Source of the DNA: Kiritimatiellia bacterium
Lineage (GTDB): Bacteria > Verrucomicrobiota > Kiritimatiellia > RFP12 > JBMNHG01
DNA: 64,000 bases
Reading direction: 5' to 3'
Assembly (NCBI GenBank): GCA_050950285.1
Contig: JBMNHG010000002.1
Coordinates: 504,654 to 568,653, forward strand
The notes beneath the pieces were generated by a model, which searched no databases, was not told the DNA's origin, and saw nothing but the letters and a program-made list of their open reading frames with translations. The stretch's first letter is position 1; every line of letters starts with the position of its first letter. The position numbers and the translations under genes are program-made. This document shows, in pieces, positions 5,041 to 55,765 of this stretch.

Positions 5041-5049
5041 TCCCGCCGC

Positions 5050-5075
5050 AAAAAAAACGGCGCGCCGTTTTTTTT
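5050..5075. terminator. Bidirectional rho-independent terminator (A8-CGGCGCGCCG-T8)
   Basis: Sequence GCAAAAAAAACGGCGCGCCGTTTTTTTTGC: a GC palindrome flanked by an A-run and a T-run, immediately after the tsaB stop. Confidence 0.8.
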
Positions 5076-5093
5076 GCCACCTTCGACCCGACC

Positions 5094-8000
5094 ATGACCA
5101 CCCTCCGGCGACATCCAGGAACTCGCGGGACGACGACGGCCCTCCTCCCGCTCGCCGTCGCCGCCGCCTGGTTTCTGGCGTCGCCCCGACCCCTTCCGGC
5201 CGCCGCCACCTACCAACCCTTCGCCCACCACGGCCTCGTGCGCGCCCGGGCCGACCTCTTCCCCGATGCCACGCGCTTCTCCGCCACGCTCCTCCCGACG
5301 GACGACGCCTCCCCCGAAGCCGCCGCGCCTGCCGCCTTCGCCGCCGCCACCCGGGACGCGGACACACTGACCCTCCTCGTCGGCGGATGGCCCATCCTCC
5401 CCCCGGGACGCTATGCCATCCAAATCCAGGGCTTTGCCGCCAACGGGGGCGAAGCCGGATCGCTCGTCGTCCCCGACGCCGTGGAACTCGCCCCGCGCCG
5501 CATCGACGTGGCCTTGGTGCTGGACGATTCCCACAGCATGCGCCACACCGACCCCTCCCGGCTCCGCATCGAGGCCGCGCGCGTCTTCGCCCGCATCGCC
5601 GCCACCCGCGGCGACGTCGCCACCCTCTCCATCGTCGGCTTCAGCCGCCGCCCCCGCCTGCTTCTCCCGCCCTCCCCGCCCGGCGATGCCGCCGCCCTCG
5701 ATGCCGCGCTCGCCAGGCTCTCCGCCAGCGGCAGCACGGACCTCGACGCCGCCCTCATCCTCGCCGCGTCGGAACTCGCCAGGCTTCCCGCCGATTCCCG
5801 CAAGGTGCTCGTCGTGCTCTCGGACGGCCGCGACGAACCCGGCGAGTACGCGAACGCCCACCTCCGCTGCGTCGCGCTCCGCTGGCCCATCTACACCGTC
5901 GGCTTCTCGGAGGACATCGACGAGGCCACGCTCCGCCGCATCGCCGACTCCACCGGCGGCACTTTCCATCGCGCCGACTCCTCCGGGCAACTCGCCGCCA
6001 TCTTCACGAAAATCGCCCGCGACCTCCACCGCAACGTCTCCCTCGGCGAATGGCCCGCCGGAGAAGGCACGTCCGTCACGATCCCCGTGGACGACACCGT
6101 CCGCTCGCTCTCCCTGACCCTGCTCGACCAGGAACCCGGCGCAGCCTGCTCCCTGATCGACCCTGTCGGCGTCTCCCGCGCCATGGCCTGTCTCCCCGGC
6201 GCCCGCGACGACGTCGCAGAGATCTTCGCCCCCGCCGCCGGCGAATGGACCCTCCGCGGCATCCATGGCCACGGCATCCTCTCCGTCCAGGCCGCAAGCG
6301 ACCTCGAACTCGTCGCCATCCCCCCCGCCGACACCCCCGTCCGACCCGGCGACCCCCTCGCCCTCTCGTGCGTGCTCCTCTCCGCCGACGGCCCCGTCCC
6401 CGGCGCCACCCTCGTCGCCCGCCTCGATCCGCACGCCACGGACTCCCGCCTCCCCGAATGGCCCGACACACCCTTCCCCCTCCGCGACGACGGACAGGAT
6501 GGAGACATCGCTCCATCCGACGGCGTCTATGCCCTCCGCCTCCCTGCCCCGGCCGCAGGCTCCGGCACCCTGCGCTTCCTCGCCACAGGCCATACCCAGG
6601 CGGGCTTCGCCTTCGAACGCCACGACTCGCTCCCCCTCTCCGTTCTCGACCCCGCTCCACCTCCCAACCTCCCCGGCATCGCCTGGCTCTCCCCGCGCCT
6701 CCCCGATCCCCTGCCCTCCCCGCGCGGCATCCGATCCACCCTCCCCGCCCCCCTTCCCGAAAGCCGCTTCCCGCCACGCGTCCTCTCCTCCCGCCTCGAC
6801 AACCCTTCCACCCCCCTCCCCGCCGCCCGGAACCTCCTGCCCCTCCCCGCCACGACGCCCCCTCCCCTCCACCTTTCGTTCCCGCCCCCCACGCCCATCG
6901 GAGAGCTCCTTCCTCCGCCCGAGTTCCTCCCCGTCGCCCCGGACCCGTCGTTCTTCGAACGCTACAACTGGCTCCACATCCTCCTGCTCGTCTGCCTGCT
7001 CGCCCTCATCGCCTTCTTCCTCGTCCACCGGATGACGAAGCTCAAGGGCCGGCACGGACGGATGCTCAAGTACTTCGTGGGTTCCGTCGCCGCACACGCC
7101 CTCCTGCTCCTGCTCACGCTGGACTTGCTCGTGCAAGTGCGCGCCGTCGAGCTCGAGGACATCTCGCCCGGACTCGCCGTCTCCCTCGAAGCCCTGGAAG
7201 GCGCCACCGGAGTGCGCCTCGCCCCGCCCGGCCCCATCGCCGGCATCCGGGAACAGGAGCGCCAAACCACGCTCGAACGCGTCGAGGCGCGCATCGCCCG
7301 GGAAAACGAACGCCGTCGCGCCACACGCCATCCCGACCTCCCCACGCCGGAAACCTCCCTCCCCGCCCCCCACCTCGAAAACGGGGAAGTGCCGTCCGGC
7401 ACCCTCGCGCATCTCGAATCGAAAATTCCAGACGTCCCGCCCGAATCGGACCTCCCCTCCCCGCACGAGACGTCCGCAACCATCGTCCCGCACCTCGCGG
7501 AACCTTCGGAGCCCGGCGATACGCCCGTGGCCCGTGCAACGGACTTCGCACGCCTCGAAGCCGCCCGCTCCGGCAACGACGTTCCCCACCCCTCTCCCAC
7601 CATCCTGCCCGACGCATCGGAAGCCTTGGACAACGCCGCGATCGAAGCCCCCACCTTCGACGTCGCACATCGCAACCCGGCCCCCCTCCAGCAACTCGGA
7701 CCCGCCGCTGCCGCAAAAGCCACGGACGTCGCATGGCTCGACCTCCCGGACGCACCCTCCCACACCCCCGCTTCCATCGCTCTCGCCTTGCACCGCGCCG
7801 ACCCCGGCGCGGACGGCGGCTCCGCCTCCATCCGCACAGCCAGCGTGGCACGCCGCGAAACACCCCGCTCCGCAGGCGGCGCCACACGCAACGCGCCGAA
7901 CTCCTCCCGCGCTTCCCTCCCGGACGCGCCGATCGCTCCGTCCGGAGGCGCTCCCGACGCCCCCGTCTTCGCCGACGCGGGCGACGCGCACGCCGCGCAC

Positions 8001-10544
8001 GCCAGCCTCCGCGCCATCGCGCCCGGCGGAGCCGCAGGCGTCCCGGACGTGGCACGGCTCGACCTTCCAGCCGCGCCAGCACACGCCGACACCTCCGCCG
8101 CACCCGCGCAACATCGCGCCGACCCCGGCGCGGACGGCGGCTCCGCCTCCATCCGCACAGCCAGCGTGGCACGCCGCGAAACACCCCGCTCCGCAGGCGG
8201 CGCCGCACGCAACGCGCCGAACTCCTCCCGCGCTTCCCTCCCGGACGCGCCGATCGCTCCGTCCGGAGGCGCTCCCGACGCCCCCGTCTTCGCCGACGCG
8301 GGCGACGCTCCCGCCGCGCACTCCAGCCTCCGAGCCATCGCGCCCGGCGGAGCCGCAGGCGTCCCGGACGTGGCACGGCTCGACCTTCCAGCCGCGCCAG
8401 CACACGCCGACACCTCCGCCGCACCCGCGCAACATCGCGCCGACCCCGGCGCGGACGGCGGCTCCGCCTCCATCCGAACCGCCAGCGTGGCACGCCGCGA
8501 AACACCCCGCTCCGCAGGCGGCGCCGCACGCAACGCGCCGAACTCCTCCCGCGCTTCCCTCCCGGACGCGCCGATCGCTCCGTCCGGAGGCGCTCCCGAC
8601 GCCCCCGTCTTCGCCGACGCGGGCGACGCTCCCGCCGCACACGCCAGCCTCCGAGCCATCGCGCCCGGCGGAGCCGCAGGCGTCCCGGACGTGGCACGGC
8701 TCGACCTTCCAGCCGCGCCAGCACACGCCGACACCTCCGCCGCACCCGCGCAACATCGCGCCGACCCCGGCGCGGACGGCGGCTCCGCCTCCATCCGAAC
8801 CGCCAGCGTGGCACGCCGCGAAACACCCCGCTCCGCAGGCGGCGCCGCACGCAACGCGCCGAACTCCTCCCGCGCTTCCCTCCCGGACGCGCCGATCGCT
8901 CCGTCCGGAGGCGCTCCCGACGCCCCCGTCTTCGCCGACGCGGGCGACGCTCCCGCCGCGCACTCCAGCCTCCGAGCCATCGCGCCCGGCGGAGCCGCGG
9001 GCGTCCCGGACGTCGCACGGCTCGACCTTCCAGCCGCGCCAGCACACGCCGCCACCTCCGTCGCACCCGCGCAACATCGCGCCGACCCCGGCGCGGACGG
9101 CGGCTCCGCCTCCATCCGCACAGCCAGCGTGGCACGCCGCGAAACACCCCGGCTCCGCAGCGGCACGCACGGCGCATCACGCCTCTCCCGCGCCGCCCTT
9201 CCGGAAGCGACGGCCGGCACCCTCGGCACGGCCCCCCCGCCGCCGCTCCCCGATGTCGAGGACGACGCCCCTCCCGCCCCAGGCCCGCTCCGGGAAATTG
9301 CCGGTGGCGATTTCGCGATATCCATCGGCGAAGGAGGGCGAGGCTCCGTCCGCACCACCATCGGAATGGCCCGCTATGGCGGGGACTGGGATTGCGCGCG
9401 TTCGGCGATGATGTTCCTCGGCCACCAACTCAAGGAACGAACCCGCCTCGCCTTCATCGCAAACGACTCCGTAATCGCCCTGGACAGTCCGGACCTCTCC
9501 AAACTGCCCTTCGTGTACCTCACCGGCCATAACGACTTCCGCTTCACCGACGCGGAAATCGCAAACCTCCGCGCCTACCTCCACGCCGGCGGCCACCTCT
9601 GGGCGGACGACTCCACCCACTTCAACGACGACTCTTTCGACACCGCCTTCCGCCGCGAAATCGCCCGCGTCCTCCCCGATGCGCCCCTCGTGCGGCTCGG
9701 CCCCGAATTCGCCGGCTTCCACACGGGCTACGACCTCTCCAACGGCTACAAAGGCTATGCCATCCCCCCCGGCGACAAGTACCGTCTCGACTACATCGAA
9801 GGCATCGCCATCGGCGGCCGTGTCGCAGTGGTCTACACCCGCAACGACTACGGCGACGGCCTCAACATCGACGCGCACACCCATCCGCTCAAGGTCTCCC
9901 TCACCGACCTCTCCCCCGCCGAAATGCAGGAAGGCGCCACGCGCATGGGCATCAACCTCGCCCTCTATTTCCTCACCTCCGCCGACACGCGCACCGCGAA
10001 GTTCGTCGACCGTACCTCCGCGACCCTGCGCAACGCGAAAGACCCCTCCCTGCCCGTCGCGCCAGAAGGCTCCGCACGGCCATGGGCGAACCTCGTCGAA
10101 GGCCCGTGGGAACACGAGCCCTGGAGCGATGCCGGAACCCGAAACGCGGGCGGTGGCGTGGCAACGCTCGACTTCACCCTCGGCAAGAACGAGAAGGTGG
10201 CGTTCTCCACCGTGTGCGAGCCCGCACTGGCCATCTCGACGCGTGACGCGCTCGTGGCCGACGTGACAAGCGACCTGCAGTGCGCGGCGCGCATCGCCGT
10301 CGGCCTCGAAATCGGCGGCCGATACTTCGAATCGACCCCCGCCTTCGTGAAGCCCGGAAGCAACGTCGTGGTCTTCCACTGCGGCGAAGCCACCTTCAAG
10401 AGCGAGGCGGGGAACTGGAATTACGCCGACCCTCTCCCCTCCCCCGCCTCCGTGTCGAAACTCACGCTGCTCGTCTACTCCCCCTCCTCCGGCCGCATCC
10501 ACCTCCGGAACGCCCGGATCATCGAGACCGCACGGGATCCCTGA
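5094..10544 (+). CDS. Giant VWA-domain / single-TM / tandem-repeat / DUF4159-domain protein (~1816 aa)
   Basis: N-terminal signal-like segment (LLPLAVAAAWFLA). VWA domain with a MIDAS-like DxSxS motif (IDVALVLDDSHSM ... VLVVLSDGRDE ... TVGF). Pro-rich linker, then TM helix WLHILLLVCLLALIAFFLVHRM. Then 4.5 copies of a 107-aa repeat. Then a DUF4159-like domain (FVYLTGHNDFRFTDAEIANLRAYLHAGGHLWADDSTHFNDDSFDTAFRREIARVLPD). The ORF upstream of ATG 5094 is R-rich out-of-frame noise overlapping tsaB. Confidence 0.75.
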   Translation: MTTLRRHPGTRGTTTALLPLAVAAAWFLASPRPLPAAATYQPFAHHGLVRARADLFPDATRFSATLLPTDDASPEAAAPAAFAAATRDADTLTLLVGGWPILPPGRYAIQIQGFAANGGEAGSLVVPDAVELAPRRIDVALVLDDSHSMRHTDPSRLRIEAARVFARIAATRGDVATLSIVGFSRRPRLLLPPSPPGDAAALDAALARLSASGSTDLDAALILAASELARLPADSRKVLVVLSDGRDEPGEYANAHLRCVALRWPIYTVGFSEDIDEATLRRIADSTGGTFHRADSSGQLAAIFTKIARDLHRNVSLGEWPAGEGTSVTIPVDDTVRSLSLTLLDQEPGAACSLIDPVGVSRAMACLPGARDDVAEIFAPAAGEWTLRGIHGHGILSVQAASDLELVAIPPADTPVRPGDPLALSCVLLSADGPVPGATLVARLDPHATDSRLPEWPDTPFPLRDDGQDGDIAPSDGVYALRLPAPAAGSGTLRFLATGHTQAGFAFERHDSLPLSVLDPAPPPNLPGIAWLSPRLPDPLPSPRGIRSTLPAPLPESRFPPRVLSSRLDNPSTPLPAARNLLPLPATTPPPLHLSFPPPTPIGELLPPPEFLPVAPDPSFFERYNWLHILLLVCLLALIAFFLVHRMTKLKGRHGRMLKYFVGSVAAHALLLLLTLDLLVQVRAVELEDISPGLAVSLEALEGATGVRLAPPGPIAGIREQERQTTLERVEARIARENERRRATRHPDLPTPETSLPAPHLENGEVPSGTLAHLESKIPDVPPESDLPSPHETSATIVPHLAEPSEPGDTPVARATDFARLEAARSGNDVPHPSPTILPDASEALDNAAIEAPTFDVAHRNPAPLQQLGPAAAAKATDVAWLDLPDAPSHTPASIALALHRADPGADGGSASIRTASVARRETPRSAGGATRNAPNSSRASLPDAPIAPSGGAPDAPVFADAGDAHAAHASLRAIAPGGAAGVPDVARLDLPAAPAHADTSAAPAQHRADPGADGGSASIRTASVARRETPRSAGGAARNAPNSSRASLPDAPIAPSGGAPDAPVFADAGDAPAAHSSLRAIAPGGAAGVPDVARLDLPAAPAHADTSAAPAQHRADPGADGGSASIRTASVARRETPRSAGGAARNAPNSSRASLPDAPIAPSGGAPDAPVFADAGDAPAAHASLRAIAPGGAAGVPDVARLDLPAAPAHADTSAAPAQHRADPGADGGSASIRTASVARRETPRSAGGAARNAPNSSRASLPDAPIAPSGGAPDAPVFADAGDAPAAHSSLRAIAPGGAAGVPDVARLDLPAAPAHAATSVAPAQHRADPGADGGSASIRTASVARRETPRLRSGTHGASRLSRAALPEATAGTLGTAPPPPLPDVEDDAPPAPGPLREIAGGDFAISIGEGGRGSVRTTIGMARYGGDWDCARSAMMFLGHQLKERTRLAFIANDSVIALDSPDLSKLPFVYLTGHNDFRFTDAEIANLRAYLHAGGHLWADDSTHFNDDSFDTAFRREIARVLPDAPLVRLGPEFAGFHTGYDLSNGYKGYAIPPGDKYRLDYIEGIAIGGRVAVVYTRNDYGDGLNIDAHTHPLKVSLTDLSPAEMQEGATRMGINLALYFLTSADTRTAKFVDRTSATLRNAKDPSLPVAPEGSARPWANLVEGPWEHEPWSDAGTRNAGGGVATLDFTLGKNEKVAFSTVCEPALAISTRDALVADVTSDLQCAARIAVGLEIGGRYFESTPAFVKPGSNVVVFHCGEATFKSEAGNWNYADPLPSPASVSKLTLLVYSPSSGRIHLRNARIIETARDP
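7730..9165 (+). repeat. In-frame tandem repeat, 321-bp unit x ~4.5, near-identical copies
   Basis: GCCGACCCCGGCGCGGACGGCGGCTCCGCCTCC recurs at 7797, 8118, 8439, 8760 and 9081 (period 321 bp, i.e. 107 aa: ADPGADGGSASIRTASVARRETPRSAGG...). Copies 2-4 differ by only a few bases. Confidence 0.9.
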
Positions 10545-11927: not shown

Positions 11928-14703
11928 TCACGCGCGGCATGGAGGCGGTATCCGCGCCCGCCCTCGAGGGACGTGCACCCCCACGATGCCCATCCGGGCC
12001 TTGACCTCGGCGCCCGTGCCGGTGCCGACGAGACGGACGCGGGGAACGAAGGTGTAGCCCGAGCCGGAGGAATGGAGGACCAGGCGGCTCAAGGCGCCGC
12101 TCGCTTCGTCGATGAACGCCTGGGCCGCGGGCGGCGTGCCGCCGTAGAGATCCGGCGGATCGAATTCCACGCGCGGGGGCTCGGCGAAGCCGGAGCCGAG
12201 GCGGACGATTTCAAGCGACTCGACGCCGAGGATCGCCTCCGCCCGCGCACCTTCCCCGGCGCCACCTTCGAAGACAAGCTCCGGGCGGGAGGGAACGCCG
12301 GTGCCTCCCCGGACAACCGCCACGCCCGCGACCGCCCCCGAACCTCCAAGGCAAAGCGCGCGGTCGATGGCGAACTGGAACGAAAGGCTGTCGATCGCAA
12401 CCGGCTGCCCCGCCGTGTGGAGCCCGCCTGCGATGTCGGGCGAGAAGGGCTTCGGCTCGCGTTCGCCACGGATGCGAAGCGGCGCGGCGAGCACGGCGCC
12501 GTATCGGGGATTGCGGCCGCCCCGCACGAGTTGCCAGAGCGGCATGGCCGAGTCCGGCGCAGGCGCGGCGGGAAGCGCGATCGCCGGGGGCTGATAGTAG
12601 AACGGCATCTCGATGTCGACCTCGTCGCCCATCGTCATGCGCTCGGATTCCTGCTCGGGATGCGCCTCCCACGGCTCGAGGGAGAGGCGATAGGAGTTGC
12701 CGGGCTTGTAGTCGAGATAGGGCGCGAAGACCTCGCCATCGAGCACCGACCATTGCGCGACGTTGATGTCCCGGTCGTCCGTCCGCCCCTTGTGGACCTT
12801 GAGAATCCGGTAGTGGCGGACGGACAGGCAGCGCCGGTAGGGCGCGATGCCAAGCGGGTCGGCGGGCTCGCAATCGCCGACGAGGAGGGCTTCGACCTCG
12901 AGACGCTGCGCGGCGGGTTCGCGGGCGGCGGCGCGTTCGCGCCAGGCGGCAACGCGCAGGCGGGCGTCCGGAAGCGACAGGGTCCGCCCGAGGAAAGCGA
13001 TGGACTCCAGACGCCCCGGCCAATTCGCGCCACCGTCCGCGACATCGCCCAGCGTAAGCGGAGCGGGTTGCCAGGATCGCGGGGAGAGCGCGGACGAGGC
13101 CGCGCCGGAGCCACCTTCGGCATCGCGCTCCAAGCCCGCCGGGAGAAGCACGCGTTTCCCGTCCGCCGCGACACGGAGGCCCTCCGCGCCGGAAACGGAC
13201 ACCGCCAGATGCACCGGCCGGCCGGCCGAAAGCGCCACGGGGAGCTCGAACGGATCCGCATGGCCGCGAAGCGAAAGGCGGAGACGGTCGCCCAGTTGCA
13301 CAAGGCGCAGGTTTTCGCCGAAATCCAGGATCGCCCCGGGATGGGCGAGCGATGCGACGCTCGGCGCCAGCACGAGTTCGAACGAGGCGGCATCCGCCGC
13401 ATGCGCGGCTTCCAGCCAGCGCCCGGCGGCGCCGTCGGGGACAAAGGCCCCGTCGTCCAGGTCGAGCAGGAAGCCTTGCGCGAGGCAGGCCGACCGGAGA
13501 AAGCGCCCGCCGCACTGGGTCACGGCGCCGGAGCCGGGATCGACAAGCTGGTTGTCGGTGGTGCCGTCCGTCCAGGCATAGACCGTCCCCGTCCTGTCGG
13601 GACGGACCCCTTCGGGCGGTTCTTCGATTTCGGGAAGGGGGTCGGGCTCCTTCGCGAGCCAGGCGGGCGGACCGTCGGGCTGGACCCAGGCATCGGGCCA
13701 GTAATCGCCCCGCTCGTTGCGCGAGACCTTCACCCAGCGCTCGATGTCGCGGAAATCCCCGGTGAACTTGCCGAAGTAGACCTCGACGCCCGCCGCGACC
13801 TCGTTGGGAATCTTGCCCTCCTCCGCGCTCCAGCTCCAGCGGCTGAAGGGCGAGGAAAGGACCAGGAAGCGCGGATGATTGCTCCAGCGGGGATGATACA
13901 TCTCCTCGTTGCCCTTGAGTTCGAGGCCCGGCGACTTGTCGAAGCGGACGCCCCAGCTGCCGCCCTTCCCGGATCGATCGGTCGTGAAGCAGAAATGGAT
14001 GCTGCGGTGGTTGCCGGTGAAGACCCACGAGCGAAGCGAATCGTCGGGGCACATGGCAGGCCAGCACCCGCCGGCGCGCTGGGCGAAGTGCGAGTTCGGA
14101 AGGAAGAAGACGCCCTGGGGCGAATTGCCGCCGTCGCCGCCGCCGGAAGCCGCGCGACCGTCGCCGTTCAGCATGAAGTGATGGCATCCCGTCTTGTCCC
14201 AGACGAGCTCCGAAACGGTCGGATCGTCGAGGCGATGGCGCATGATGGCGAGGGCCTGACGGTCTCCCCGGGCGACCTTCTCGCGCACGTAGACCCACTC
14301 CACATGGTCGCGGGGATCTTCCCAGACATCCATGAATTCGACATCGCCGAGAATCTTCCGGGGAGTCCCGCCGGTGAAATCCACGATGAAAACCCCGCCC
14401 TTTTCCGCATCGCCGTAGACCACGCGCGTGCCGTCGTCGGTAAGGAGCGGCTTGATGTACCGCGACGGCTCCGCAAGAATCGTCCGTTCGCCGAGGCCGT
14501 CCTCGGTGTCGAAGCCCATGAGGACCATCGTGGGCTTTTCCGAATAGGGGCAGGCGGTCGGGCCGGCATCCTGGACCCAGACCACCTTCACCGGACGCCC
14601 CTCGGAGAGGGCCTTCAGGTCTTCCGCGACGGAAGCGGCATCCTGCGGGACGGCGGCAAGCGGCAGGACAAGACAAAGAAAAACCAGGGGGAAGACGTTC
14701 ATG
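11928..14703 (-). CDS. Large secreted hypothetical protein (~925 aa as annotated; true C-terminus probably continues to ~10602 via frameshifts)
   Basis: Signal peptide MNVFPLVFLCLVLPLAAVPQDAAS at ATG (complement) 14701-14703. Balanced composition. The overlapping plus-strand ORF 11178..14906 is G/A/R-rich antisense noise. Confidence 0.65.
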
Positions 14704-14772
14704 GGGGAAAAGAGAGCAAAAAGCATGCCCGCGACTTCGTGCCTGAGGAATCGGCAATCGTCCGTCTTATTA

Positions 14773-14922
14773 CTAACCCGGCCACAAATAGCGTTGCTCA
14801 CGGAGATTCAGGCATTGGGAGCTGGAATTTGGAGTTGGGAAAGGGGCATGGACATTCCTGTCCGTGTCACGGGTTGGAAAACCCGTGCCCCTGTTTTGCA
14901 GTATGAATTGTGGCCGAGTTAG
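14773..14922. mobile_element. MITE copy 1 (150 bp, TIR CTAACCCGGCCACAA / TTGTGGCCGAGTTAG, TA target-site duplication)
   Basis: Terminal inverted repeats with one mismatch, flanked by TA at 14771-14772 and 14923-14924. The same flanks occur uninterrupted at ~19927-19955 (GTCCGTCTTATTAC|TTCTTCCTTGTTTC), i.e. an empty site. A second copy lies inverted at 55516-55665. No ORF is encoded. An internal hairpin is CACGGGTTggaaAACCCGTG. Confidence 0.8.
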
Positions 14923-15135
14923 TACTTCTTCCTTGTTTCGTAATCGGTTAGCGGCAGGGGGTGAGGGGGCGATGCAATTCAAGTGCGAGGGGTAGCAAAA
15001 AAATCGTGTTTTTTGTGTTTGCACGAACGTTTGTAATATGATCCTGGCCAACTTTGTTCCGTTGACAACCTTCGCATAGGTTTGCAACAATCAGTTCCAC
15101 ATTCTTCACGTTGTTTGCCAGGGAGGCAGTTGTCC

Positions 15136-18100
15136 ATGAATTCGCGCCGTTTGTTCTCCAGGTTTGCCTGTTCGGTCATCGCGACAGCCGCATGCGTCGG
15201 CATCGCCAGCGCCGCTTCGCCCGTCGATGTGGACGGCCTCACGCTCTGGCTCGACGCCAATGACTTCGCAAAGTACCCAACCGGCACAAAGGTGCCTTCC
15301 TGGACGGACAAGGCGAGCAGCCTTCCTTTCACGCAGGGCACCGATTCCGTGCGACCGACCGTGAACAAGGAAGGTCCAAACAACAAGACGGTCGTCCACT
15401 TCGAGCGCCCGAACCCCGGCAACCCGAAGCAGACGCAGTATCTCGAGTGCCAGAACAATACCTTGAAGACCCTCTTCCAGGCACCCCACACATCGTTTGC
15501 AGTCGCGCGCGGCACGGCTGCCGGCGGCAACGGCGGCAAGGAGAACGCCACGTACGTCTACGCGTTGCCGGGCTACCACAGCGGCCTCCAGTTCTGGGCG
15601 GACGGCGGAAACAACCTGGTCCCACCCACGCAGGCTGGCGCAATCCGCTGGCTGTCCAACTCGTCGGGCGGCAATGTCGATGGGAACTTCGACCTCCGTG
15701 CGTCCTACACGGCAGGCGAGTACATCATGCTCTCGGCCGTCGTCAATGGCTATAGCTACAATACCCCCGGCGTATCGCTGGACGTCTTCATCAACAACGA
15801 GCCCGTCAATTCCGGCAGCAATGCCGGCAAGTACCTCTACAAGCAGACCAGCGAGTGCGCCCTCGTGCGCATCGGCGCTTCGAACAACAGCGCCGACTGG
15901 TCCGGCGGCCTGAACGGCGACATCGCCGAAATCCTCGTCTTCAACCGCGTGCTTTCCGAGGCGGAACAGAGAACCGTCTGGAAATACCTCGCCAACAAAT
16001 GGGGGCTCGTCGGCTTCGCGATCGGGAACCCCGTGACCCACAGCCCGCTTTACATTTCATCCGGCACGGTCTCCATCATCTCCCATCCCGAAATCGTCGA
16101 GGGCATGGAATACCAGCTCTCCCTCGAGGCAGAGGCAGACAATCTTTCAGAGGCAGACTGGATGGCGTCCTCCACCCCGTTCCCGGAAACCTACTCCTTC
16201 CCCACCCCGGCCGAGGATGGCGACGTGACCATCTATCTTTGGACGCGCACCACGGGCGAAAACGCCGGGACGAACTCCGCCCCCGCGACCATCGCATACA
16301 CCACGGTCGCCCCGACCGCCGTCGCCAAGGACATCTCGATCGCGATCGACAGCGTAACCGGATATCCGCTTTCCGCTTCCGAAATCGACAATGGCTCCTC
16401 CGACGCAACCGGCATCTATTCGCTCTCGGTTGATCCCGGCGTCATCCGCTTCGCGACCAACGTGACGCTCACCGTGATGAACAACGCGGGCCTCGCCTCC
16501 ACCGCGACCGCGCACGTGTCCATCTCCTCTCTCCTCGACATCCACGTGGAGACGGACGGCAATGACGGCCTTGGCGACGGTTCCGCAGGATCTCCCTTCG
16601 CCACCATCTCCCATGCGATCGACGTCGCGAACAACGCGAACGACGGCAACTTCCGCACGGTCTACGTCGGCGAAGGCACCTTCTCCGCCGCTTCCGGCGA
16701 AGTGTTCCCGTACACCGTCTCCAACAACGTGGCGATCGCCGGTTCCGGCATCGGGCGCACGATCGTCGATGGCAACCGCACCGGCAACTTCATGAACCTC
16801 GTCGCCTCCACGACACCATCCCGCATCGCCGGCCTCTCGCTCCGCCGCGCGCAGCGCTACGCGATCAACGCCGAGTCCTGGGGCGGCGTCATCGAGGACT
16901 GCGAGATCAGCGACATCTCGAACACCTACAATTTCATCTTCGTGAACGAAGCTTCCGCGCGCGACTTCACCCTGAGCGGACTCGTCGTGACCAACATCAC
17001 GGGCTCGACTTCATCGAAGCAGCTCATGGATCTGCGCGGCGCGACTGGCGGACTGCTCACGATCACGAACTGCTTCTTCGACAACATCTCCACGCCAAAC
17101 GCGGCGTGGCAGCATGGCGGCAACATCCGCATCATGGGTTCGATAAAAGTTCAAACCGCCGGCTGGAATTCGGAAGTTGTCGACACCGTCTTCGCGAATT
17201 TCACGGCCCCCGGCGGCAACCATGGGGAAGGTTCCTGCATCATGTACGGCAAGACGGCCGACTACGGCTACCATCGGATCGACCGTTGCGTCTTCCACGA
17301 CATCGACTTCACCAACAACGGCGAAGTGTTCATCGGCGGCGACAATGCGAACGCCACCGGCCAGACGCTGGAGATCTGCAACAGCCTCTTCTACAACATC
17401 CACTTCAAGAACAACGGGCCGAGCTACACGTCGAGCGCAGTCGGCGGATTCCGCGTCGCCCCGATCGTCTACAACTGCACCTTCCACAATGTCGACACCG
17501 TGGTGCGCCCGTTCACCGGTTCGGCCCTCAAGGTGTACAACTCCAGCATCAGCGACTGCGCCCACCTCGCGATGGCGAACAACCCCACGACGTACGTCTA
17601 CCTCAACAACGTGAACGTCTGCAACACGGGCGACGCCTCGAACTACAGCGCAGCGAACAGCTCGAACGTGACTTCGTACGACCCCTACTACAAGAACGCG
17701 TCTTCCGCGAACTTCAAGCTCAAGCCCCTGAGCCTGCTCGTCGACGCCGGCAACAACGCGAATGTCCAGGGTGCGAATGACCTCGCGCACGGCGTGCGTA
17801 TCGCCGACGGCAACGCGGATGGAACCGCGACCGTCGATATCGGAGCATACGAGTACGATCCCTCCGCCGCCGGCGCCCGCTTCGTCGCAGGCGCCGCAGT
17901 CTACGGCGTCTTCGAAGGCAAGAGCGTTGCAATCCCCGTCTGGATCGAACCCGCGATGGCACGTGATCCAATCACCGCCAATGTCGCCTGCCCCGCCGGC
18001 ATCACCGGCGCGGCGACGCTCTCCTTCACGACCGGCCTTGAGACGAACCACCTCGTCGTCACCGCCGCCGATCCGCTGGACGTCCCGAACGGCACGCTTC

Positions 18101-19815
18101 TCGAACTCGGCATTTCGGATGCCGACGAAGATCTCGATTCCACGTCGATCGGCCTCATGGTGAACACGCGCGAAGTCTCGATTCCCGGCCTCGCCCCGCG
18201 CGTCTTCCTCCGCGACGGCGAAAGCGCCTCGTTCACCCCGCAACTCCCGAACGAATTCTTCGCCGCGCCCGAAACCATCGCCATCACGGCGGGCTCGCAA
18301 GCGGGCGACATCGGCAACACGATTTCATGGAACGGCACGGGCATTGCGGCCGGAACCAACGCCGCAGACGGCACGCTCTCGCTCGTCAGCGGCGGAACGG
18401 GCCGCACCACGCTCGACCTCTGCCTTCCCAGCGGATGGACCTTCGCCGGATCCGGCGAGGACACCCTCGCCATCGAGGTGGTCGGCTTCGAGCCCCCGCT
18501 CTACATCTCGCCCGACGGCAGCGATGCGACAGGCGAAGGCACCGAGGACTCCCCGCTCCGCACGATGACCTACGCGACCCCGCTCCTCCGCGCGGGTGAA
18601 ACGCTCCGCCTCCTTCCCGGCGTCTATGGCCCGACAGACGCCGAAGTCTTCCCCGTGACCGTCCCGCCGGGCATCGCCCTCGTCGGCGAACGCGGCGCGG
18701 GCGACGCGCCTGAAACCACCGCGATCATCGATCCAGACGCCACCGGAAACGCCTTCGTCCTTGGCACGCTCGGCGCCGACCAGGGCAACATCCCGGGCGG
18801 CGCACTCCGTTCGCTCGTGATCCGCAATGCGGCAGGAACGGGCATCTACGGACGCTTCTGGGGTGGCGACATCACGGACTGCGCGCTGCGTGACTTTGCC
18901 CCGGGCACCTTCCTCGGCTCCTGCTCCGCGCTCTACATCAACCCGTCCCGCGGAAACGTGGTTCTCTCCGGCACGGAAATCGGCTGCATCACCTCGAGCA
19001 TGTCGGTGGTTGCCTACGTCGAATCGGGCAACGGCTCGCTGACCGTCACGAACTGCTGGTTCCACGACCTCAAAGGCACGGGCGAAACGGCTTGGGAACA
19101 CACGGGCGGCATGTTCAACTCGCGCGTGCCCGTCACGGTCATGGACTCCGTCTTCGAGGACATCGTGATGCCCGGAAACGGCGGAAGCGAATCCATGGGC
19201 GTGCTCCATGCGTACAATGTCCACGCCGAATACCACCGCAACATCTTCCGCCGCATCGCGATTCACGAATACCACTTCAACTACGCGCTCCTTGCCGGCA
19301 ACCGCGACACGCCGCTCGTCGCGAACTGCCTGTTCCACGACATTACAAGCGCCGGAACCCGTCAGGTCCTGGGCGGGTACAGCGCCACCTTCAACGTCGT
19401 GAACTGCACCTTCGACAACATCCCCGCGCTCTTCTCGAGCTACGACGTCAAAGGCCGCACCCTGAGAAACTCCTCCGTGAGCCACTGCGACGCAATCAAC
19501 CTCGGTGAACAGGGAACAACGCAAGTCGTGCTGAAGAACGTGAACCTCTACGACGTCGGCGAAGGCACGGGCTTCGCGACCAACTTGAGCGAGAACGTCA
19601 CGTTCGTCGATCCCGGCTACAAGAATCCCGGAGCAGGCAACTACCACCTGCGTTCCTCGAGCGCGCTCGTGAATGCCGGCGACAACACGCTCGTTGTCGG
19701 CACGACGGACCTCGACGGCAACGACCGCATCTTCCGCGCGGACAAGGGCGGCATCGTCGACCTCGGCTGCTACGAGAACTCGACCCTCGGCGGCACGGTC
19801 TTCCTGCTCCGCTAG
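15136..19815 (+). CDS. Giant secreted LamG-domain / 2x DUF1565-type parallel-beta-helix protein (~1559 aa) with C-terminal GTVFLLR tail
   Basis: Signal peptide MNSRRLFSRFACSVIATAACVGIASAASP. LamG/concanavalin-like module (DGLTLWLDANDF ... GDIAEILVFNRVLSEAEQRTVWKYLANKWGL). Two pectin-lyase-fold/DUF1565-like units (SPFATISHAIDVANNANDGNFRTVYVGEGTF and SPLRTMTYATPLLRAGETLRLLPGVYG). Ends ...GCYENSTLGGTVFLLR*. Confidence 0.8.
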   Translation: MNSRRLFSRFACSVIATAACVGIASAASPVDVDGLTLWLDANDFAKYPTGTKVPSWTDKASSLPFTQGTDSVRPTVNKEGPNNKTVVHFERPNPGNPKQTQYLECQNNTLKTLFQAPHTSFAVARGTAAGGNGGKENATYVYALPGYHSGLQFWADGGNNLVPPTQAGAIRWLSNSSGGNVDGNFDLRASYTAGEYIMLSAVVNGYSYNTPGVSLDVFINNEPVNSGSNAGKYLYKQTSECALVRIGASNNSADWSGGLNGDIAEILVFNRVLSEAEQRTVWKYLANKWGLVGFAIGNPVTHSPLYISSGTVSIISHPEIVEGMEYQLSLEAEADNLSEADWMASSTPFPETYSFPTPAEDGDVTIYLWTRTTGENAGTNSAPATIAYTTVAPTAVAKDISIAIDSVTGYPLSASEIDNGSSDATGIYSLSVDPGVIRFATNVTLTVMNNAGLASTATAHVSISSLLDIHVETDGNDGLGDGSAGSPFATISHAIDVANNANDGNFRTVYVGEGTFSAASGEVFPYTVSNNVAIAGSGIGRTIVDGNRTGNFMNLVASTTPSRIAGLSLRRAQRYAINAESWGGVIEDCEISDISNTYNFIFVNEASARDFTLSGLVVTNITGSTSSKQLMDLRGATGGLLTITNCFFDNISTPNAAWQHGGNIRIMGSIKVQTAGWNSEVVDTVFANFTAPGGNHGEGSCIMYGKTADYGYHRIDRCVFHDIDFTNNGEVFIGGDNANATGQTLEICNSLFYNIHFKNNGPSYTSSAVGGFRVAPIVYNCTFHNVDTVVRPFTGSALKVYNSSISDCAHLAMANNPTTYVYLNNVNVCNTGDASNYSAANSSNVTSYDPYYKNASSANFKLKPLSLLVDAGNNANVQGANDLAHGVRIADGNADGTATVDIGAYEYDPSAAGARFVAGAAVYGVFEGKSVAIPVWIEPAMARDPITANVACPAGITGAATLSFTTGLETNHLVVTAADPLDVPNGTLLELGISDADEDLDSTSIGLMVNTREVSIPGLAPRVFLRDGESASFTPQLPNEFFAAPETIAITAGSQAGDIGNTISWNGTGIAAGTNAADGTLSLVSGGTGRTTLDLCLPSGWTFAGSGEDTLAIEVVGFEPPLYISPDGSDATGEGTEDSPLRTMTYATPLLRAGETLRLLPGVYGPTDAEVFPVTVPPGIALVGERGAGDAPETTAIIDPDATGNAFVLGTLGADQGNIPGGALRSLVIRNAAGTGIYGRFWGGDITDCALRDFAPGTFLGSCSALYINPSRGNVVLSGTEIGCITSSMSVVAYVESGNGSLTVTNCWFHDLKGTGETAWEHTGGMFNSRVPVTVMDSVFEDIVMPGNGGSESMGVLHAYNVHAEYHRNIFRRIAIHEYHFNYALLAGNRDTPLVANCLFHDITSAGTRQVLGGYSATFNVVNCTFDNIPALFSSYDVKGRTLRNSSVSHCDAINLGEQGTTQVVLKNVNLYDVGEGTGFATNLSENVTFVDPGYKNPGAGNYHLRSSSALVNAGDNTLVVGTTDLDGNDRIFRADKGGIVDLGCYENSTLGGTVFLLR

Positions 19816-19944
19816 AGAAATTCTCAAAAAAAAAACGGCGCGCCGCGAAGTGGACCCCCATTTCGCGGCGCGCCGCTTTGCGGCGGCAGAGGAAGAAGCC
19901 AACGCGACCCGGCGGGCGGTCTCTTTGGCCGCCGCAGTCCGTCT
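19681..19944 (+). repeat. Direct repeat copy A (~260 bp, >97% identical to 25441..25704)
   Basis: Covers the last ~135 bp of CDS 15136..19815 plus ~130 bp downstream, including the terminator hairpin. Identical apart from single-base differences (e.g. GTTGTCGGC vs GTTGCCGGC). Confidence 0.85.
19826..19880. terminator. Palindromic terminator-like hairpin (A10-CGGCGCGCCGCGAA-12nt loop-TTCGCGGCGCGCCG)
   Basis: Perfect 14-bp stem. The A-run upstream gives a U-run for minus-strand transcripts; CTTT follows on the plus strand. Confidence 0.55.
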
Positions 19945-20022
19945 TATTACTTCTTCCTTGTTTCCATCGCAATGACTCTGTACATTTTTGTTTTCAATTC
20001 ACTCCCAAGGAGCATGTTGTTT

Positions 20023-23000: not shown

Positions 23001-25575
23001 CGACTGCGTCTTCGAAGACTGGGAATACGCCGGCTACAACAACAGCCAGGAAATCGGCGTCCTGACCTTTGCGAATTCGACCAGCCCCCACATCTTTGAC
23101 CGCTGCGTCTTCCGCAATATGAAAGTCACGAACGGACAGCGCGGCGTGCTGATGTCGCCGAACCGCGGCTCCACCAATTACATCGTCAGGAACTGCCTCT
23201 TCGAGAGCATCGAGCGCGTGGTCTTCAATTCGTTCCAGACCTATCCGAGCATCTACAACTGCACGATCCACAATTGCGGAAGCGCCTTCTGGCCGCACTT
23301 CACGATCTACGCCTACAACTGCTCGGTCAGCTCCTGCACGGGCGTTGCCGAGGGCGGCTCCAGCAGTCTCTACCTCCGGAACACCAACATCTACGATACG
23401 CCGTACGAGAACCAGTACAATGCCGACAACAGCTTCGATCTGACCTTCTTCAACCCGTTCTACAAAAACGCGGACGCCGGCAACTTCGACCTGAAGGTGT
23501 TCAGCAAGCTCGTCGACCTCGGCAACAACTCGTACGTCTCCGGCGACAAGGATTTCGCGGGTACGACGCGCATCCTCGACGGCGGAAGCGGCACTGCGAC
23601 CGTCGATGTCGGCTGCTTCGAATACGATCCCGCCGCCTCCGGCGCCGGCATCAAGTTCGAGACGGCAAACTACGGTCTCTTCGAGGACCGCTCGCTTACG
23701 CTCCGCGCGAAGGTCGATCCTGCGCCAGAAGGCACCGTAACGGCGAACGTCGGCTATCCCGAGGGCGTCTTCGGTCCCGCGACGGTCACGCTCGGCGGCG
23801 ACTGGACCTCCTTCGTAGTCACCGCGACGAACGACTTCGAGCAAGCCGATGGCACCGTCGTCGAACTGACGCTCGCCGATGCTGCCGGCGAACTCGAGGA
23901 AGGCTCCGTCGGCCTCACCCTCTACAGCCGCATCGTCATGGTCCCCAATTACAAGGCCCGCGTCTTCCTCCGCCAGGGCGAAACCGCTTCGCTCGCCATG
24001 CAGCTGCCGTCGTTGGAATTCGGCGCGCCCGGTGCAATCGGCGTAACGGCCGATGAAATGGGCGGCACCGGCACGGGCTCGATCGTCTGGGCCGGCGATG
24101 GGTTTGCCGATGGCGCAAACGCCGCAGACCAGACTGTCGCTCTCGCCGGCGGACTCGGCTCGAACACCCTCACGCTCACACTGGGCAATGGCTTCACCTT
24201 CGCGGAGTCTGGAACCGACAAACTTGCGATCGAGGTCGTCGGCTTCGTTTCCCCGCTCGTCGTCGATCCCGCGAACGGAAGCGACGGGACCGGTCTTGGC
24301 ACGGCTGAAGCGCCGCTCGCCTCGCTCAACTACGCCCTCGGGCAGTTGCGCTCCGGCGAAGCGATCGCCGCCACGGCCGGCCGCTACACGACCGTCGCGA
24401 ACGGCGGCAACGAATCGGCGTTCCCGATCATCGTCGCGCCAGGCATCTCGATCATCGGCGTGCGCGGCGAAACGGACGACGAAACGGACTCGACCGTGGT
24501 CGATCCAAATCTCACTGCGGGCGCGTTCGTGCTCGGCACGCTGGGCGGCGATCCCGGCACCATTGCGGCGGGCGCACTCAGGAATGTCGTGATCCGCCGT
24601 TCGAACGGAGTCGCGGTCAACGGCCGCTACTGGATGGGCACCATCGAGAACTGCGCGTTCAAGGAACTCTCCGGTGCGGGCACCGACAGCACGGTCGCCG
24701 GCTTCTTCGACCTGACCAAGGGCGCCACCTCGCTCGTCGACGTCGATGTCTATGCCATTACCTCGACGGCCGCCCGCGTAATCTACATCAAGAACGGCAC
24801 CGGGAACGCGGCGTTCACGCGCTGCCACTTCCACGACCTCCAATTCACCCCGAACAACATCGGCATGGCTGGCCTTGTGGATTCACGGCAGTATATTTCG
24901 GTCGACGACTGTGTCTTCGAGGACATCGTCAACACCTTGACGGGCAATCAGGGCGAGTCGCTCGGCATGGTCCACAACTACTATTCCGGACTGGCGATCA
25001 ACCGCTGCCTCTTCCGCAACTTGACGCTCAATTATCCCACAGTCGGCGGCAACCGCGTGATGGTCTACATCGACAATTCGCTCTTCTACAACATCAAGGG
25101 CGGGGGGCCGGTCTTCCGCACCTTCCGCACGTCGATCAACGTTACGGGTTGCACGGTCGACGACGTCGACCTCGTGTTCATGAACGAGTCGGACGGCACC
25201 CATACCTACACGATGGCCAACTCGTCGCTCTCGCGCGCACGGTTGAACTCTTCCCCGCAGGTTTCTGGAGGCCGTATCCGCAATGTCGCACTGCGCAATA
25301 CGAACCTCTCCGACATCCTGGAGGGCACAGGCTATACGACGAACATGTCGGTGAACGTGACCCTTCTGGATCCTGGCTTCAAGAACATCGCGAACAGGGA
25401 CTACCATCTGAAGGGATCGAGCGCGCTGAGGGATATAGGCGACAACACGCTCGTTGCCGGCACGACGGACCTCGACGGCAACGACCGCATCTTCCGCGCG
25501 GACAAGGGCGGCATCGTCGACCTCGGCTGCTACGAGAACTCGACCCTCGGCGGCACGGTCTTCCTGCTCCGCTAG
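20023..25575 (+). CDS. Giant secreted LamG / Gly-rich-module / 2x parallel-beta-helix protein (~1850 aa) with C-terminal GTVFLLR tail
   Basis: Signal peptide MKKSWKSATVGAMVALLSIGVFAA. LamG module (GLTIWLDATDIDG ... GHIAEMLIFNRELTAEEHAKVWKYLNARWQL). Gly-rich module (ALLVGAGGAGGLTLGGGGAGGGVVEY ... YGAGGGGGGGNGIH ... GGRGGSGAVILVIQKK). Two DUF1565-like beta-helix units. C-terminal 45 aa identical to the preceding paralog. Alternative start ATG at 20014. Confidence 0.8.
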   Translation: MKKSWKSATVGAMVALLSIGVFAACPEGLDGMGLTIWLDATDIDGLGDGNPAENTAINSWTDKASGLQFTPIIGGYTADQHLPHLYSNGRAGKDVVSFGRVNAINQAQYLGATDSRIATLFDNTNTAFVVAQATLGGSDNNTQTTTYFFARKGWHSGFGFMGYPLATALQNTRWFGGTAANANNKNMMPAAPYTNGTWIAASRIIRGGTTIVGASSEIFINNRLRAASTNATESLWGHGGSANTMYVGCSGTQNGTYCGGMSGHIAEMLIFNRELTAEEHAKVWKYLNARWQLAGDDEYTYDDGVIRSNDGTVKRTVLGGGKFCYEFTVPRGEIKVSPVSASVLERALLVGAGGAGGLTLGGGGAGGGVVEYADLDVTLPQEFTLSVGEGGVGYHLCNLASAFWATKGGNGGKTTLHVDGNEYVAYGGGGGASWSATAADSTSGSTPLANAGGGSGAGGKGGIGIDHNGADVVGFAISHGNGAGGGGGAGGDGQAACQSGTLYYAGTGGCGVTNNTTGIEVEYGAGGGGGGGNGIHRGLAGGVSAGDGGEASQFGGPQIGFDGLDGRGGGGGGGGYAYACSGGRGGSGAVILVIQKKSFAIADSFSLFPEATARGEIVATYVGEAEEGSTYLVSLEGDSTQLPSVGWTACGGDLPTFQFPTNTPYGTVTVYYHVKDVGGDIATYSAQIAYVDPADCVPMVTVKDAMVTYDESIGGVTPITVDMVKVSVEDDYGIYSETLDVTGICTASTNTTLTVTNRLGIAAGATATVTASTLLCFVSPDGDDGTGTGWSDAPLKTITNALALAEAGYTFDGLQRTVYLMEGTYSASDGQSFPITLVEGVNFKGAGMGKAIVDAEGAANHLVIPSSTVPFAISGFSLRNAQARFLQASAANFALKDVEMSGCATGNGCIYICTYANARTVSFENLVMTNIAVTVNQGQLVHAGGSGALSFDKCRFADIAIAWAGNGTGFKVCYAQNTGADHFYASGWPATVTDCVFEDWEYAGYNNSQEIGVLTFANSTSPHIFDRCVFRNMKVTNGQRGVLMSPNRGSTNYIVRNCLFESIERVVFNSFQTYPSIYNCTIHNCGSAFWPHFTIYAYNCSVSSCTGVAEGGSSSLYLRNTNIYDTPYENQYNADNSFDLTFFNPFYKNADAGNFDLKVFSKLVDLGNNSYVSGDKDFAGTTRILDGGSGTATVDVGCFEYDPAASGAGIKFETANYGLFEDRSLTLRAKVDPAPEGTVTANVGYPEGVFGPATVTLGGDWTSFVVTATNDFEQADGTVVELTLADAAGELEEGSVGLTLYSRIVMVPNYKARVFLRQGETASLAMQLPSLEFGAPGAIGVTADEMGGTGTGSIVWAGDGFADGANAADQTVALAGGLGSNTLTLTLGNGFTFAESGTDKLAIEVVGFVSPLVVDPANGSDGTGLGTAEAPLASLNYALGQLRSGEAIAATAGRYTTVANGGNESAFPIIVAPGISIIGVRGETDDETDSTVVDPNLTAGAFVLGTLGGDPGTIAAGALRNVVIRRSNGVAVNGRYWMGTIENCAFKELSGAGTDSTVAGFFDLTKGATSLVDVDVYAITSTAARVIYIKNGTGNAAFTRCHFHDLQFTPNNIGMAGLVDSRQYISVDDCVFEDIVNTLTGNQGESLGMVHNYYSGLAINRCLFRNLTLNYPTVGGNRVMVYIDNSLFYNIKGGGPVFRTFRTSINVTGCTVDDVDLVFMNESDGTHTYTMANSSLSRARLNSSPQVSGGRIRNVALRNTNLSDILEGTGYTTNMSVNVTLLDPGFKNIANRDYHLKGSSALRDIGDNTLVAGTTDLDGNDRIFRADKGGIVDLGCYENSTLGGTVFLLR

Positions 25576-25704
25576 AGAAATTCTCAAAAAAAACGGCGCG
25601 CCGCGAAGTGGACCCCCATTTCGCGGCGCGCCGCTTTGCGGCGGCAGAGGAAGAAGCCAACGCGACCCGGCGGGCGGTCTCTTTGGCCGCCGCGGTCCGT
25701 CGCT
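25441..25704 (+). repeat. Direct repeat copy B (pairs with 19681..19944); partial third copy at 28725..28775
   Basis: Near-identical 3' CDS end plus downstream hairpin (hairpin at 25586-25640). A truncated version of the same hairpin follows the next gene (AAAAACGGCGCGCCGCGAAGTGGACCCCCATTTCGCGGCGCC). Confidence 0.85.
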
Positions 25705-28713: not shown

Positions 28714-28969
28714 GCGGCAGCCTGGAAAAACGGCGCGCCGCGAAGTGGACCCCCATTTCGCGGCGCCGGCAATTCTGGGACTGCAACGAGCGTGGGCGTC
28801 CCCGCCATCCCGTGGACAAGCAGGCGCTCATCCCTTGTCTCCCGGTCCCCTCCGGCGCCCCCTTCCCGGCCAGCCAAACATCCTGGAACTCCTGGTTTCT
28901 CTGGAACGAAGCGGGTGAAATATGCTACGGTGCGGAAAACATCATCCTGAAAGGCCGGCCAACGTGAAC

Positions 28970-46312: not shown

Positions 46313-46533
46313 GGCACGGAAATCCCCTTGCTCGACCCAAGGCCCGCCCCGCCGGGACGGGGTCGGATCGGACGGCTGGAACGCCGGCCTATGGTGGCAG
46401 AACGATGTGGAGTCATGGCGGTCCCCGAAACAGGTGGGGGGTGAAACGTCCATGATATCCGATCCCCCCTCCCGAATCAATCGCGAGAAAGCAAAACGCG
46501 CGACCGCCGCGCCGGACAGGACGGGCGGGAGCG

Positions 46534-55168: not shown

Positions 55169-55381
55169 ATGGAAAGGGACGCGATAGGCAAGATTGACTT
55201 TATCTGGGGCGACAACACCGAGGGAATCTGCCACATAATGGACAAGCATAGGTCGGATGCCGGCATGATTCCTGGAGTCATTGCGTACGGCGATGTCTTC
55301 GAGGACAAGGCCAATGGCAAGTATTACATCATAAAAAGGAAAACTGGGTATGCAGTTGACTCAACCTGCCACAACCTGTAG
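55169..55381 (+). CDS. Small ORF / gene remnant in low-GC island (70 aa; frame stays open upstream of the Met)
   Basis: GC ~48% versus 68% for the window. Protein-like sequence GKIDFIWGDNTEGICHIMDKHRSDAGMIPGVIAYGDVFEDKANGKYYIIKRKTGY. Its 3' end overlaps the left 32-bp IR (55336-55367). Probably a C-terminal fragment of a foreign gene. Confidence 0.3.
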   Translation: MERDAIGKIDFIWGDNTEGICHIMDKHRSDAGMIPGVIAYGDVFEDKANGKYYIIKRKTGYAVDSTCHNL

Positions 55382-55765
55382 TATGACCATCCATAAACGA
55401 CTATCCGACCAGCATGGCCGAATTGGACCGCAGGTTTGCGACGCAGGACGCCTGTCTGGCTTATTTGGCGACGCTGGGAACCACGAAGAGCCGCGTTCTG
55501 CTGTTTGACAAGCTACTAACTCGGCCACAATTCATACTGCAAAACAGGGGAACGGGTTTTCCAACCCGTGACACGGACAGGAATGTCCGTGCCCCTTTCC
55601 CAACTCCAAATTCCAGCTCCTCATGCCTGAATCTCCGTGAGCAGCGCTATTTGTGGCCGGGTTAGTAGCATTATTGGCGGTCGTCACAGCCCCCAACCCG
55701 CGATCAAAAATCGTGCCGCCACAAGATGTTGTGTCTGGTTGAGCCAACTGCATACCCAGTAAAGG
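55336..55765. repeat. 32-bp inverted repeats (AAAGGAAAACTGGGTATGCAGTTGACTCAACC / GGTTGAGCCAACTGCATACCCAGTAAAGGAAA) bracketing a ~430-bp segment that contains MITE copy 2
   Basis: Left IR at 55336-55367; right IR at 55734-55765 as the reverse complement with 2 mismatches. The interior holds a short ORF (MAELDRRFATQDACLAYLATL...) interrupted by the MITE. Confidence 0.6.
55516..55665. mobile_element. MITE copy 2 (150 bp, inverted relative to copy 1, TA TSD)
   Basis: CTAACTCGGCCACAA ... TTGTGGCCGGGTTAG flanked by TA (55514-55515 and 55666-55667). ~95% identical to the reverse complement of 14773-14922. Confidence 0.8.

Follow-up and report, generated by a model that had tools for sequence, protein, structure and literature searches.

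What is the 150-bp sequence that stands twice, in opposite orientations, in this stretch of Kiritimatiellia DNA, and how did it come to occupy its two sites? A first-pass annotation had taken it for a MITE, and both positions that it gave, as well as the inverted arrangement, hold within the window, that is, the whole 64-kb stretch analysed here (Table 1). A repeat search returned one inverted pair, 14771-14924 and 55514-55667, of 154 nt and 97% complementary with both flanking TAs included, and BLASTN with the 150-bp element gave an identity of 96.7% between copy 1 and copy 2 (145/150). As such, the copies are near-identical, as had been claimed, and only the earlier figure of about 95% needs replacing by the measured one. 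The terminal inverted repeats (TIRs) CTAACCCGGCCACAA and CTAACTCGGCCACAA, which had been described as 15 bp long in both copies, are indeed 15 nt and agree at 14/15 positions within each copy; their four exact sites are the sole exact matches to the TIR pattern within the 64 kb, and the reported TA flanks were recovered at 4/4 ends in the window. No further or degenerate copies were found in the 64-kb window beyond these two with an nhmmer profile built from five copies. In addition, the element had been said to encode no protein and to contain internal hairpins. The only ORFs that overlap it are read-throughs from the flanks, leaving it with no coding capacity of its own and, at 150 bp, well below the 300 bp that bound a bacterial MITE, and the hairpins are real, with RNA folding z-scores of -3.6 and -4.6 on the two strands.

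Table 1. Positions of the 150-bp element, of its parts and surroundings in the window, and of its copies in the sister genome.
Feature	Position	Strand	Basis or description
MITE copy 1, 150 bp	14773..14922	+	alignment, inverted-repeat pair, BLASTN, nhmmer
MITE copy 2, 150 bp, inverted relative to copy 1	55516..55665	-	alignment, BLASTN, nhmmer
TA target-site duplication, left of copy 1	14771..14772	.	single TA in unfilled site
TA target-site duplication, right of copy 1 (partner of left TA)	14923..14924	.	single TA in unfilled site
TA flanks of copy 2	55514-55515 and 55666-55667		
Left TIR of copy 1, CTAACCCGGCCACAA	14773..14787	+	exact matches, IS-end alignment
Right TIR of copy 1, CTAACTCGGCCACAA as minus-strand reading	14908..14922	-	exact matches, IS-end alignment
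Core double-hairpin module	14842..14891	+	CA(T/C)GGACA-TTCC-TGTCCGTG and CACGGGTT-GGAA-AACCCGTG, closed by GGGG/CCCC
Unfilled paralogous site	19937..19964	+	exact 28-mer equal to the copy-1 flanks over one TA (TA 19948-19949)
Outer TIR element hosting copy 2	55343..55760	.	418 bp; 40-nt inverted ends (85%); 8-bp direct repeats AAAGGAAA
Full MITE copies in JBMNOD01	L014 1421-1568; L055 649-802; L063 3725-3878		
MITE copies in JBMNOD01 cut by contig ends	L024; L084		

When the two copies are aligned, their homology breaks off precisely at the flanking TA on each of the four sides, and the flanks beyond are unrelated. For copy 1, the window itself offers a comparison of a filled with an unfilled site. 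The first-pass annotation had placed the empty site at about 19927-19955; the exact match it had noticed is real, but the coordinates were 10 nt too low, the true site being 19937-19964. There, GTCCGTCTTAT-TA-CTTCTTCCTTGTTTC stands as an uninterrupted 28-mer (0 matches in 100 shuffles; local BLAST E = 6e-11), and the alignment of filled and empty sites that had been proposed as a check sets TA-element-TA at 14771-14924 against a single TA. In local alignment the likeness between the two sites is limited to the 28 nt, with flanking homology absent: what the window offers is a paralogous island of 28 nt, neither an allelic nor an orthologous empty site. A single TA within an exact 28-mer suffices to show that insertion added the element and one TA. 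The first 7 nt of the 28-mer (GTCCGTC) also form the end of a 116-nt segment found in duplicate 3' of two tandem giant genes (19828-19943 = 25586-25701, 99%), and because of this overlap the 28-mer appears to be left over from past tandem duplication in the giant-gene cluster. As a separate observation on this cluster, the 3' ends of the tandem giant genes and their downstream terminator-like palindromes AAAACGGCGCGCCGCGAAGTGGACCCCCATTTCGCGGCGCGCCGCTTT are 92-99% identical between 19640-19943 and 25400-25701 (also 28727-28766) while the gene bodies have diverged, which suggests gene conversion or a recent partial duplication.

Copies of the element were then sought outside the window. A scan for the 15-mer TIR in one genome per species returned at least 111 stretches, mostly chance or coding matches, and BLAST against the fetched loci identified real MITE copies, among the matches listed, in Kiritimatiellia alone. 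Matches in Bacteroidota (e.g. L032 3161-3185) were discarded because they encode (Y)PNPATN, the C-terminal sorting motif of T9SS; the overlap between the TIR 15-mer and the sorting motif is a trap for pattern-based searches, which will meet many false matches in Bacteroidota. Inverted TIR pairs 60-3500 bp apart, again among the matches listed, were MITEs only, with no IS. A sister MAG, 'Kiritimatiellia bacterium SBF912SR1HQ0027' (JBMNOD01, a GTDB representative), holds at least five MITE copies (at least seven ends or copies) at unrelated loci, in addition to the two sites in the window. The JBMNOD01 copies are 89-93% identical to those of the window and have unrelated flanks, the TIRs are conserved in five of them, and they fall into two subfamilies of 148-150 bp and 154 bp. 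TA is present at 7/8 visible ends, the exception being L014, where TG takes its place on one side, and the copies appear to be intergenic. L063 was considered as an orthologous site of copy 1 and rejected: a TTATTA beside the MITE is common to both, and the remaining flanks are unrelated.

These copies bear on the proposal that the repeat is no transposable element at all, but the product of segmental duplication or gene conversion, or a structured-RNA gene present twice, with TA flanks that are coincidental. Local duplication between the tandem giant genes is indeed extensive (19640-19943 vs 25400-25701, 92-99%), and the RNA folds better than its shuffles. However, a segmental duplication would have to account for homology that ends at TA on all four sides between unrelated flanks, for the single TA of the unfilled site, for at least five more copies with unrelated flanks in another genome and for termini identical to those of IS630-family elements, as detailed below, while a structured-RNA gene finds no Rfam family. 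We regard either origin as extremely improbable.

When metagenomes were scanned for the TIR together with its TA, 33 loci were returned, and at L121 two TIR sites lie inverted, 1106 bp apart. L121 851-1956 and L131 124-1230 are one TA-flanked element of 1106/1107 bp, 99.8% identical between the two, with the termini CTAACCCGGCCACAAATAGTCTTGCA (left) and CTAACCCGGCCACAAATTATGCTGCA (right). Compared with these ends, the MITE is identical over 19 nt on the left (23/25 overall) and matches at 22/26 on the right; nhmmer aligns MITE positions 1-26 to the left and 115-150 to the right end of the IS, the likeness extending to about nt 25 at the left end and to about nt 34-36 at the right. L131 has an intact 344-aa ORF, which scores 225 bits on NF033545 'IS630 family transposase' (NCBIfam; cut-off 100) and matches DDE_3 (115 bits), HTH_33 and HTH_29 in Pfam; the L121 copy is frameshifted. 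Related Kiritimatiellia contigs therefore do contain a TA-flanked IS630-family IS with TIRs that match those of the MITE.

This IS belongs to a larger set. P0002, P0003 and P0123 are relatives of the L131 transposase with 80-83% amino-acid identity (80% for P0003 and P0123), and the relatives' elements are TA-flanked, end in CTAACCCGGCCA(A/T/C)AA and occupy several different sites. The elements of the P0003/P0123 type, L145, L161 and L162, lie at three different sites, are flanked by TA and have the ends CTAACCCGGCCAAAAATAGTGTTGCA / CTAACCCGGCCATAAT, and a third IS type (P0002; L146-L148) has the ends CCAACCCGGACACAAATAGTCTTGCA / CTAACCCGGCCACAAA. We also considered whether the MITE is a simple internal-deletion derivative of an IS. 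Its alignment with each of the three IS types is confined to the terminal 25-36 nt and its interior is without a match, which argues that the MITE is no simple deletion derivative of any IS type found. Two further candidates were set aside: L004 and L069 of MAG JBMNFY01 are not IS but solo ends, lacking a partner TIR or a transposase, and the 446-aa ORF that neighbours the solo end of L112/L114 resembles a glycosyltransferase gene and is not a transposase. Such solo ends, consisting of the first 25-27 nt of one IS end only, were also seen at L116, L120, L134 and about 10 sibling metagenome loci in addition to L004 and L069, and the same 8 nt, TGATCCTA, precede the end in two solo-end locus types that are unrelated to each other, as they do in the complete IS of L121.

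Together, the anatomy, the TA duplication, the multiple unrelated insertion sites and the IS630-identical termini are direct observations, and the last three support the original assignment to the IS630/Tc1-mariner-type MITEs. The points by which the first-pass annotation could have been refuted were all decided in its favour: further copies stand in a sister genome, an IS with matching TIRs exists, and the empty site is statistically secure. We conclude, with high confidence, that the 150-bp unit is a non-autonomous MITE of the IS630/Tc1-mariner type which is moved in trans, or formerly was, by a transposase of a Kiritimatiellia IS630 clade. According to this model, the MITE would retain the terminal sequences recognised by the transposase of the 1.1-kb Kiritimatiellia IS630-family clade, and the transposase would act on it in trans by cut-and-paste, inserting it into TA, often within C-TA-G, with duplication of the TA. 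On this view, the clade transposase would bind the MITE and mobilise it. For ISY100, the transposase alone has been shown experimentally to excise the element by double-strand cuts, to insert it at TA and to duplicate the TA (PMC2170065), and the anatomy of the MITE fits an ISY100-type mechanism in all respects that a sequence can test. In addition, C-TA-G was found in 6/10 of the complete sites for which targets were reconstructed, a frequency that agrees with the CTAG preference of IS630 announced in the title of Tenzen & Ohtsubo 1991 (cited in PMC2170065).

Whether the family can still move is a separate matter. The 64-kb window has no gene for an IS630-type transposase. Two of its proteins are identical to NCBI entries labelled 'MAG: ... 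[Kiritimatiellia bacterium]' (MGI6494891.1 and MGI6494897.1), and none of the NCBI-sourced homologues among the best 120 could be assigned to this MAG of the window, with its MGI6494xxx proteins. In the sister MAG, P0003, P0123 and P0124 carry the NCBI annotation 'IS630 family transposase [Kiritimatiellia bacterium]', with accessions that lie close together (MGI5869421, MGI5869555, MGI5869991), and P0124 is a truncated member of the P0003/P0123 90% cluster. MITE copy L024 lies on JBMNOD010000050, and the P0124 transposase gene is probably on the same contig, alongside it. From this contig placement and the close accessions of the three proteins we infer that JBMNOD01 holds both IS630-family transposase genes and MITEs.

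The copies in the window might accordingly be read as dead relics of a family that is immobile here, its cognate transposase gone from the genome. The 64 kb without a transposase, the lack of an assignable homologue among the best 120 and a second Kiritimatiellia MAG, JBMNFY01, with solo IS ends only (L004, L069) would all be consistent with such a loss. However, the two copies differ at just 5/150 positions and have intact TIRs, and intact 344-aa transposases of the clade are present in metagenome sample 3300062814 alongside contigs that are 100% identical to the window. We consider immobility here a serious possibility, albeit a somewhat doubtful one, and favour the view that the MITE, served in trans by a clade transposase, is presumably still active in the window's genome.

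The two copies sit in quite different surroundings. Copy 1 occupies a divergent intergenic region between a minus-strand gene of 924 aa (ATG 14702), from whose start codon it begins at a distance of 70 nt, and a plus-strand giant gene (ATG 15136), whose 1559-aa product contains DUF1565 and matches Laminin_G_3 weakly. The end of the copy was measured at 213 nt before the latter ATG, in agreement with the roughly 210 bp upstream of a giant LamG gene that had been estimated. Exact-protein look-ups with the ORFs starting at 15136, 14702, 14726 and 20023 and with 61085-62257 gave no match. Two other features of the window's large genes may be mentioned here. Between 7696 and 9279, within a 2046-aa ORF (4404-10544), five tandem 321-bp repeats with 64-88% identity to the first copy correspond to a repeated 107-aa domain in the giant protein. 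In addition, a palindrome containing GGCGCGCC, with A and T runs on its sides (AAAAACGGCGCGCCG...GCGGCGCGCCGTTT), recurs at 5034-5070, 46517-46572 and 60914-60950, at several gene ends, and is probably a shared bidirectional terminator motif.

Copy 2 is placed between a minus-strand gene and a plus-strand gene, in what had been called a low-GC island; the GC content there is 50-55%, against 65.8% across the window, which bears out the description. It is nested inside another TIR element, which is unrelated to the MITE and would measure 266 bp once the nested MITE and one TA are taken out. The 8-bp duplication and the TIRs of this outer element are compatible with several IS families. Its conceptual 68-aa peptide bears what we take to be a resemblance to the fused N- and C-termini of an IS1595 transposase. 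An assignment to IS1595 was nevertheless rejected, the 68-aa peptide having no match in Pfam / NCBIfam at E <= 10 and none by tblastn against plasmids. Contigs that are 100% identical to the window are present in several JGI samples, and short-read contigs of this kind break off within the outer element, at 55370, 55440 and 55473, short of the copy-2 site. Since this is what is expected of a multi-copy repeat, it suggests that the outer element has several copies. In the same low-GC island (55000-56650, 50-55% GC), a 70-aa ORF at 55169-55381 matches the N-terminal two thirds of PBECR1, a phage barnase/EndoU/colicin-like nuclease (29.8 bits, cut-off 27.6). Since the ORF runs into the outer TIR element with its last 12 codons and its stop, the PBECR1-like gene appears to have been truncated by the insertion of that element.

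At MITE positions of about 66-125 lies a module of roughly 55 nt that is composed of two 8-bp hairpins (CACGGACA/TGTCCGTG and CACGGGTT/AACCCGTG) and a G/C closing stem. Related Kiritimatiellia have the same module between genes, free of TIRs (L069 3173-3235, L014 5667-5729, L055 7137-7190 and L112 2099-2156 / L114), and 6827-7116 of L055 is a tandem array of the second hairpin (29 bp x 10, 97%). A search of Rfam at E <= 1 over 14500-15200 gave no match. Between its ends, the MITE bears no relation to the IS and carries a separate sequence, organised around a module that is also free-standing in these genomes. One might speculate that the double-hairpin core is an independent functional or self-propagating unit of Kiritimatiellia which was captured by IS630 termini. 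We think this unlikely; if true, the MITE would be a vehicle that spreads a structured regulatory or protein-binding module beside giant surface-protein genes. The free-standing double-hairpin module is the sole thread of this analysis with some novelty.

A related proposal is that of exaptation, in which the main role of the element would now be in cis, its conserved core terminating or insulating transcription, affecting RNA stability or binding protein, and the MITE would be a mere delivery vehicle that brought the core to the giant secreted-protein genes. The core is about 90% conserved, occurs without TIRs between genes of related genomes and folds well (z -3.5 to -6.4), and a simple terminator pattern fits the + strand of copy 1, where CCCCTGTTTT comes after the second hairpin. 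However, the terminator scan around copy 1 gave 2 sites against a chance expectation of 1.2, and in copy 2, whose hairpin has a mismatch, no terminator was called. The core varies by single substitutions only, without covariation, and has no Rfam match. The promoter scan gave no promoter-like site within the MITE; 5' of the giant gene it gave a single sigma-70-like match, 15062-15091, which falls between MITE and gene. The suggestion of the first-pass annotation that the element could supply promoter or terminator activity thus goes unsupported, apart from the one consensus terminator-like hairpin in copy 1. We judge a role of the core in cis to be quite improbable, and effects of the MITE on neighbouring genes are speculative.

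The mobile DNA of Kiritimatiellota is poorly catalogued, and the present analysis adds to it an IS630-type MITE and the clade of its partner IS, with ends that read TA followed by CTAACCCGGCCACAA; a full-text literature search found no paper on MITEs in Kiritimatiellota. It also accounts for short-read assembly breaks at MITE loci in the window's population, and the two recent insertions beside large secreted-protein genes could be useful as strain markers. As such, its value is mainly practical, and it poses no challenge to the current understanding of transposition.

Among known systems, the closest parallel may be drawn with RUP of Streptococcus pneumoniae, a 107-bp element that is thought to be mobilised by IS630-Spn1 and is often inserted inside other IS elements (PMC2229807). 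Like RUP (PMC2229807), the Kiritimatiellia MITE is small and non-coding, has TIRs similar to the ends of IS630-family IS and inserts at TA, and the nesting of copy 2 inside another TIR element recalls the insertion of RUP inside other IS elements. The two differ in that their sequences are unrelated, in that the host here is a member of Kiritimatiellota with 66% GC, and in that the MITE measures 150 bp with 15-nt TIRs and is G+C-rich, whereas RUP has TIRs of 9 bp and is A+T-rich. On sequence grounds, the MITE would work like RUP with IS630-Spn1, and it passes as an IS630-type MITE on every point that can be judged in this way. Its partner IS (L121/L131, L145, L161/L162, L146) resembles IS630 of Shigella sonnei and ISY100 of Synechocystis in anatomy, being about 1.1 kb long with a single transposase ORF that combines HTH and DDE_3, and shares with them TIRs, TA duplication and a frequent C-TA-G target. 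In contrast to these, the MITE of the window is without a transposase, and the TIR CTAACCCGGCCACAA is specific to the Kiritimatiellia clade as far as sampled.

Correia or NEMIS elements of Neisseria are 107-155 bp long, with TIRs, a terminal TA, target duplication and stable stem-loop transcripts, and their ends have been defined by comparing filled with empty sites, while their cognate transposase is not known (PMC2229807). By description, the size, TIRs, terminal TA and target duplication agree with those of the Kiritimatiellia MITE. Unlike Correia, however, the latter has a matching IS630-family IS, and no IHF site or promoter motifs were identified in it. REP and BIME sequences are short, G+C-rich, intergenic repeated hairpin units that can form tandem arrays, and REPs lack TIRs and a target-site duplication. 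The inner double-hairpin module alone resembles them, being a short, G+C-rich, intergenic repeated hairpin with a tandem array in L055, whereas the whole MITE has both TIRs and a target-site duplication. Set against these systems, the MITE is an ordinary example of a well-documented kind of selfish DNA, and what is new is its host phylum and its particular TIR family.
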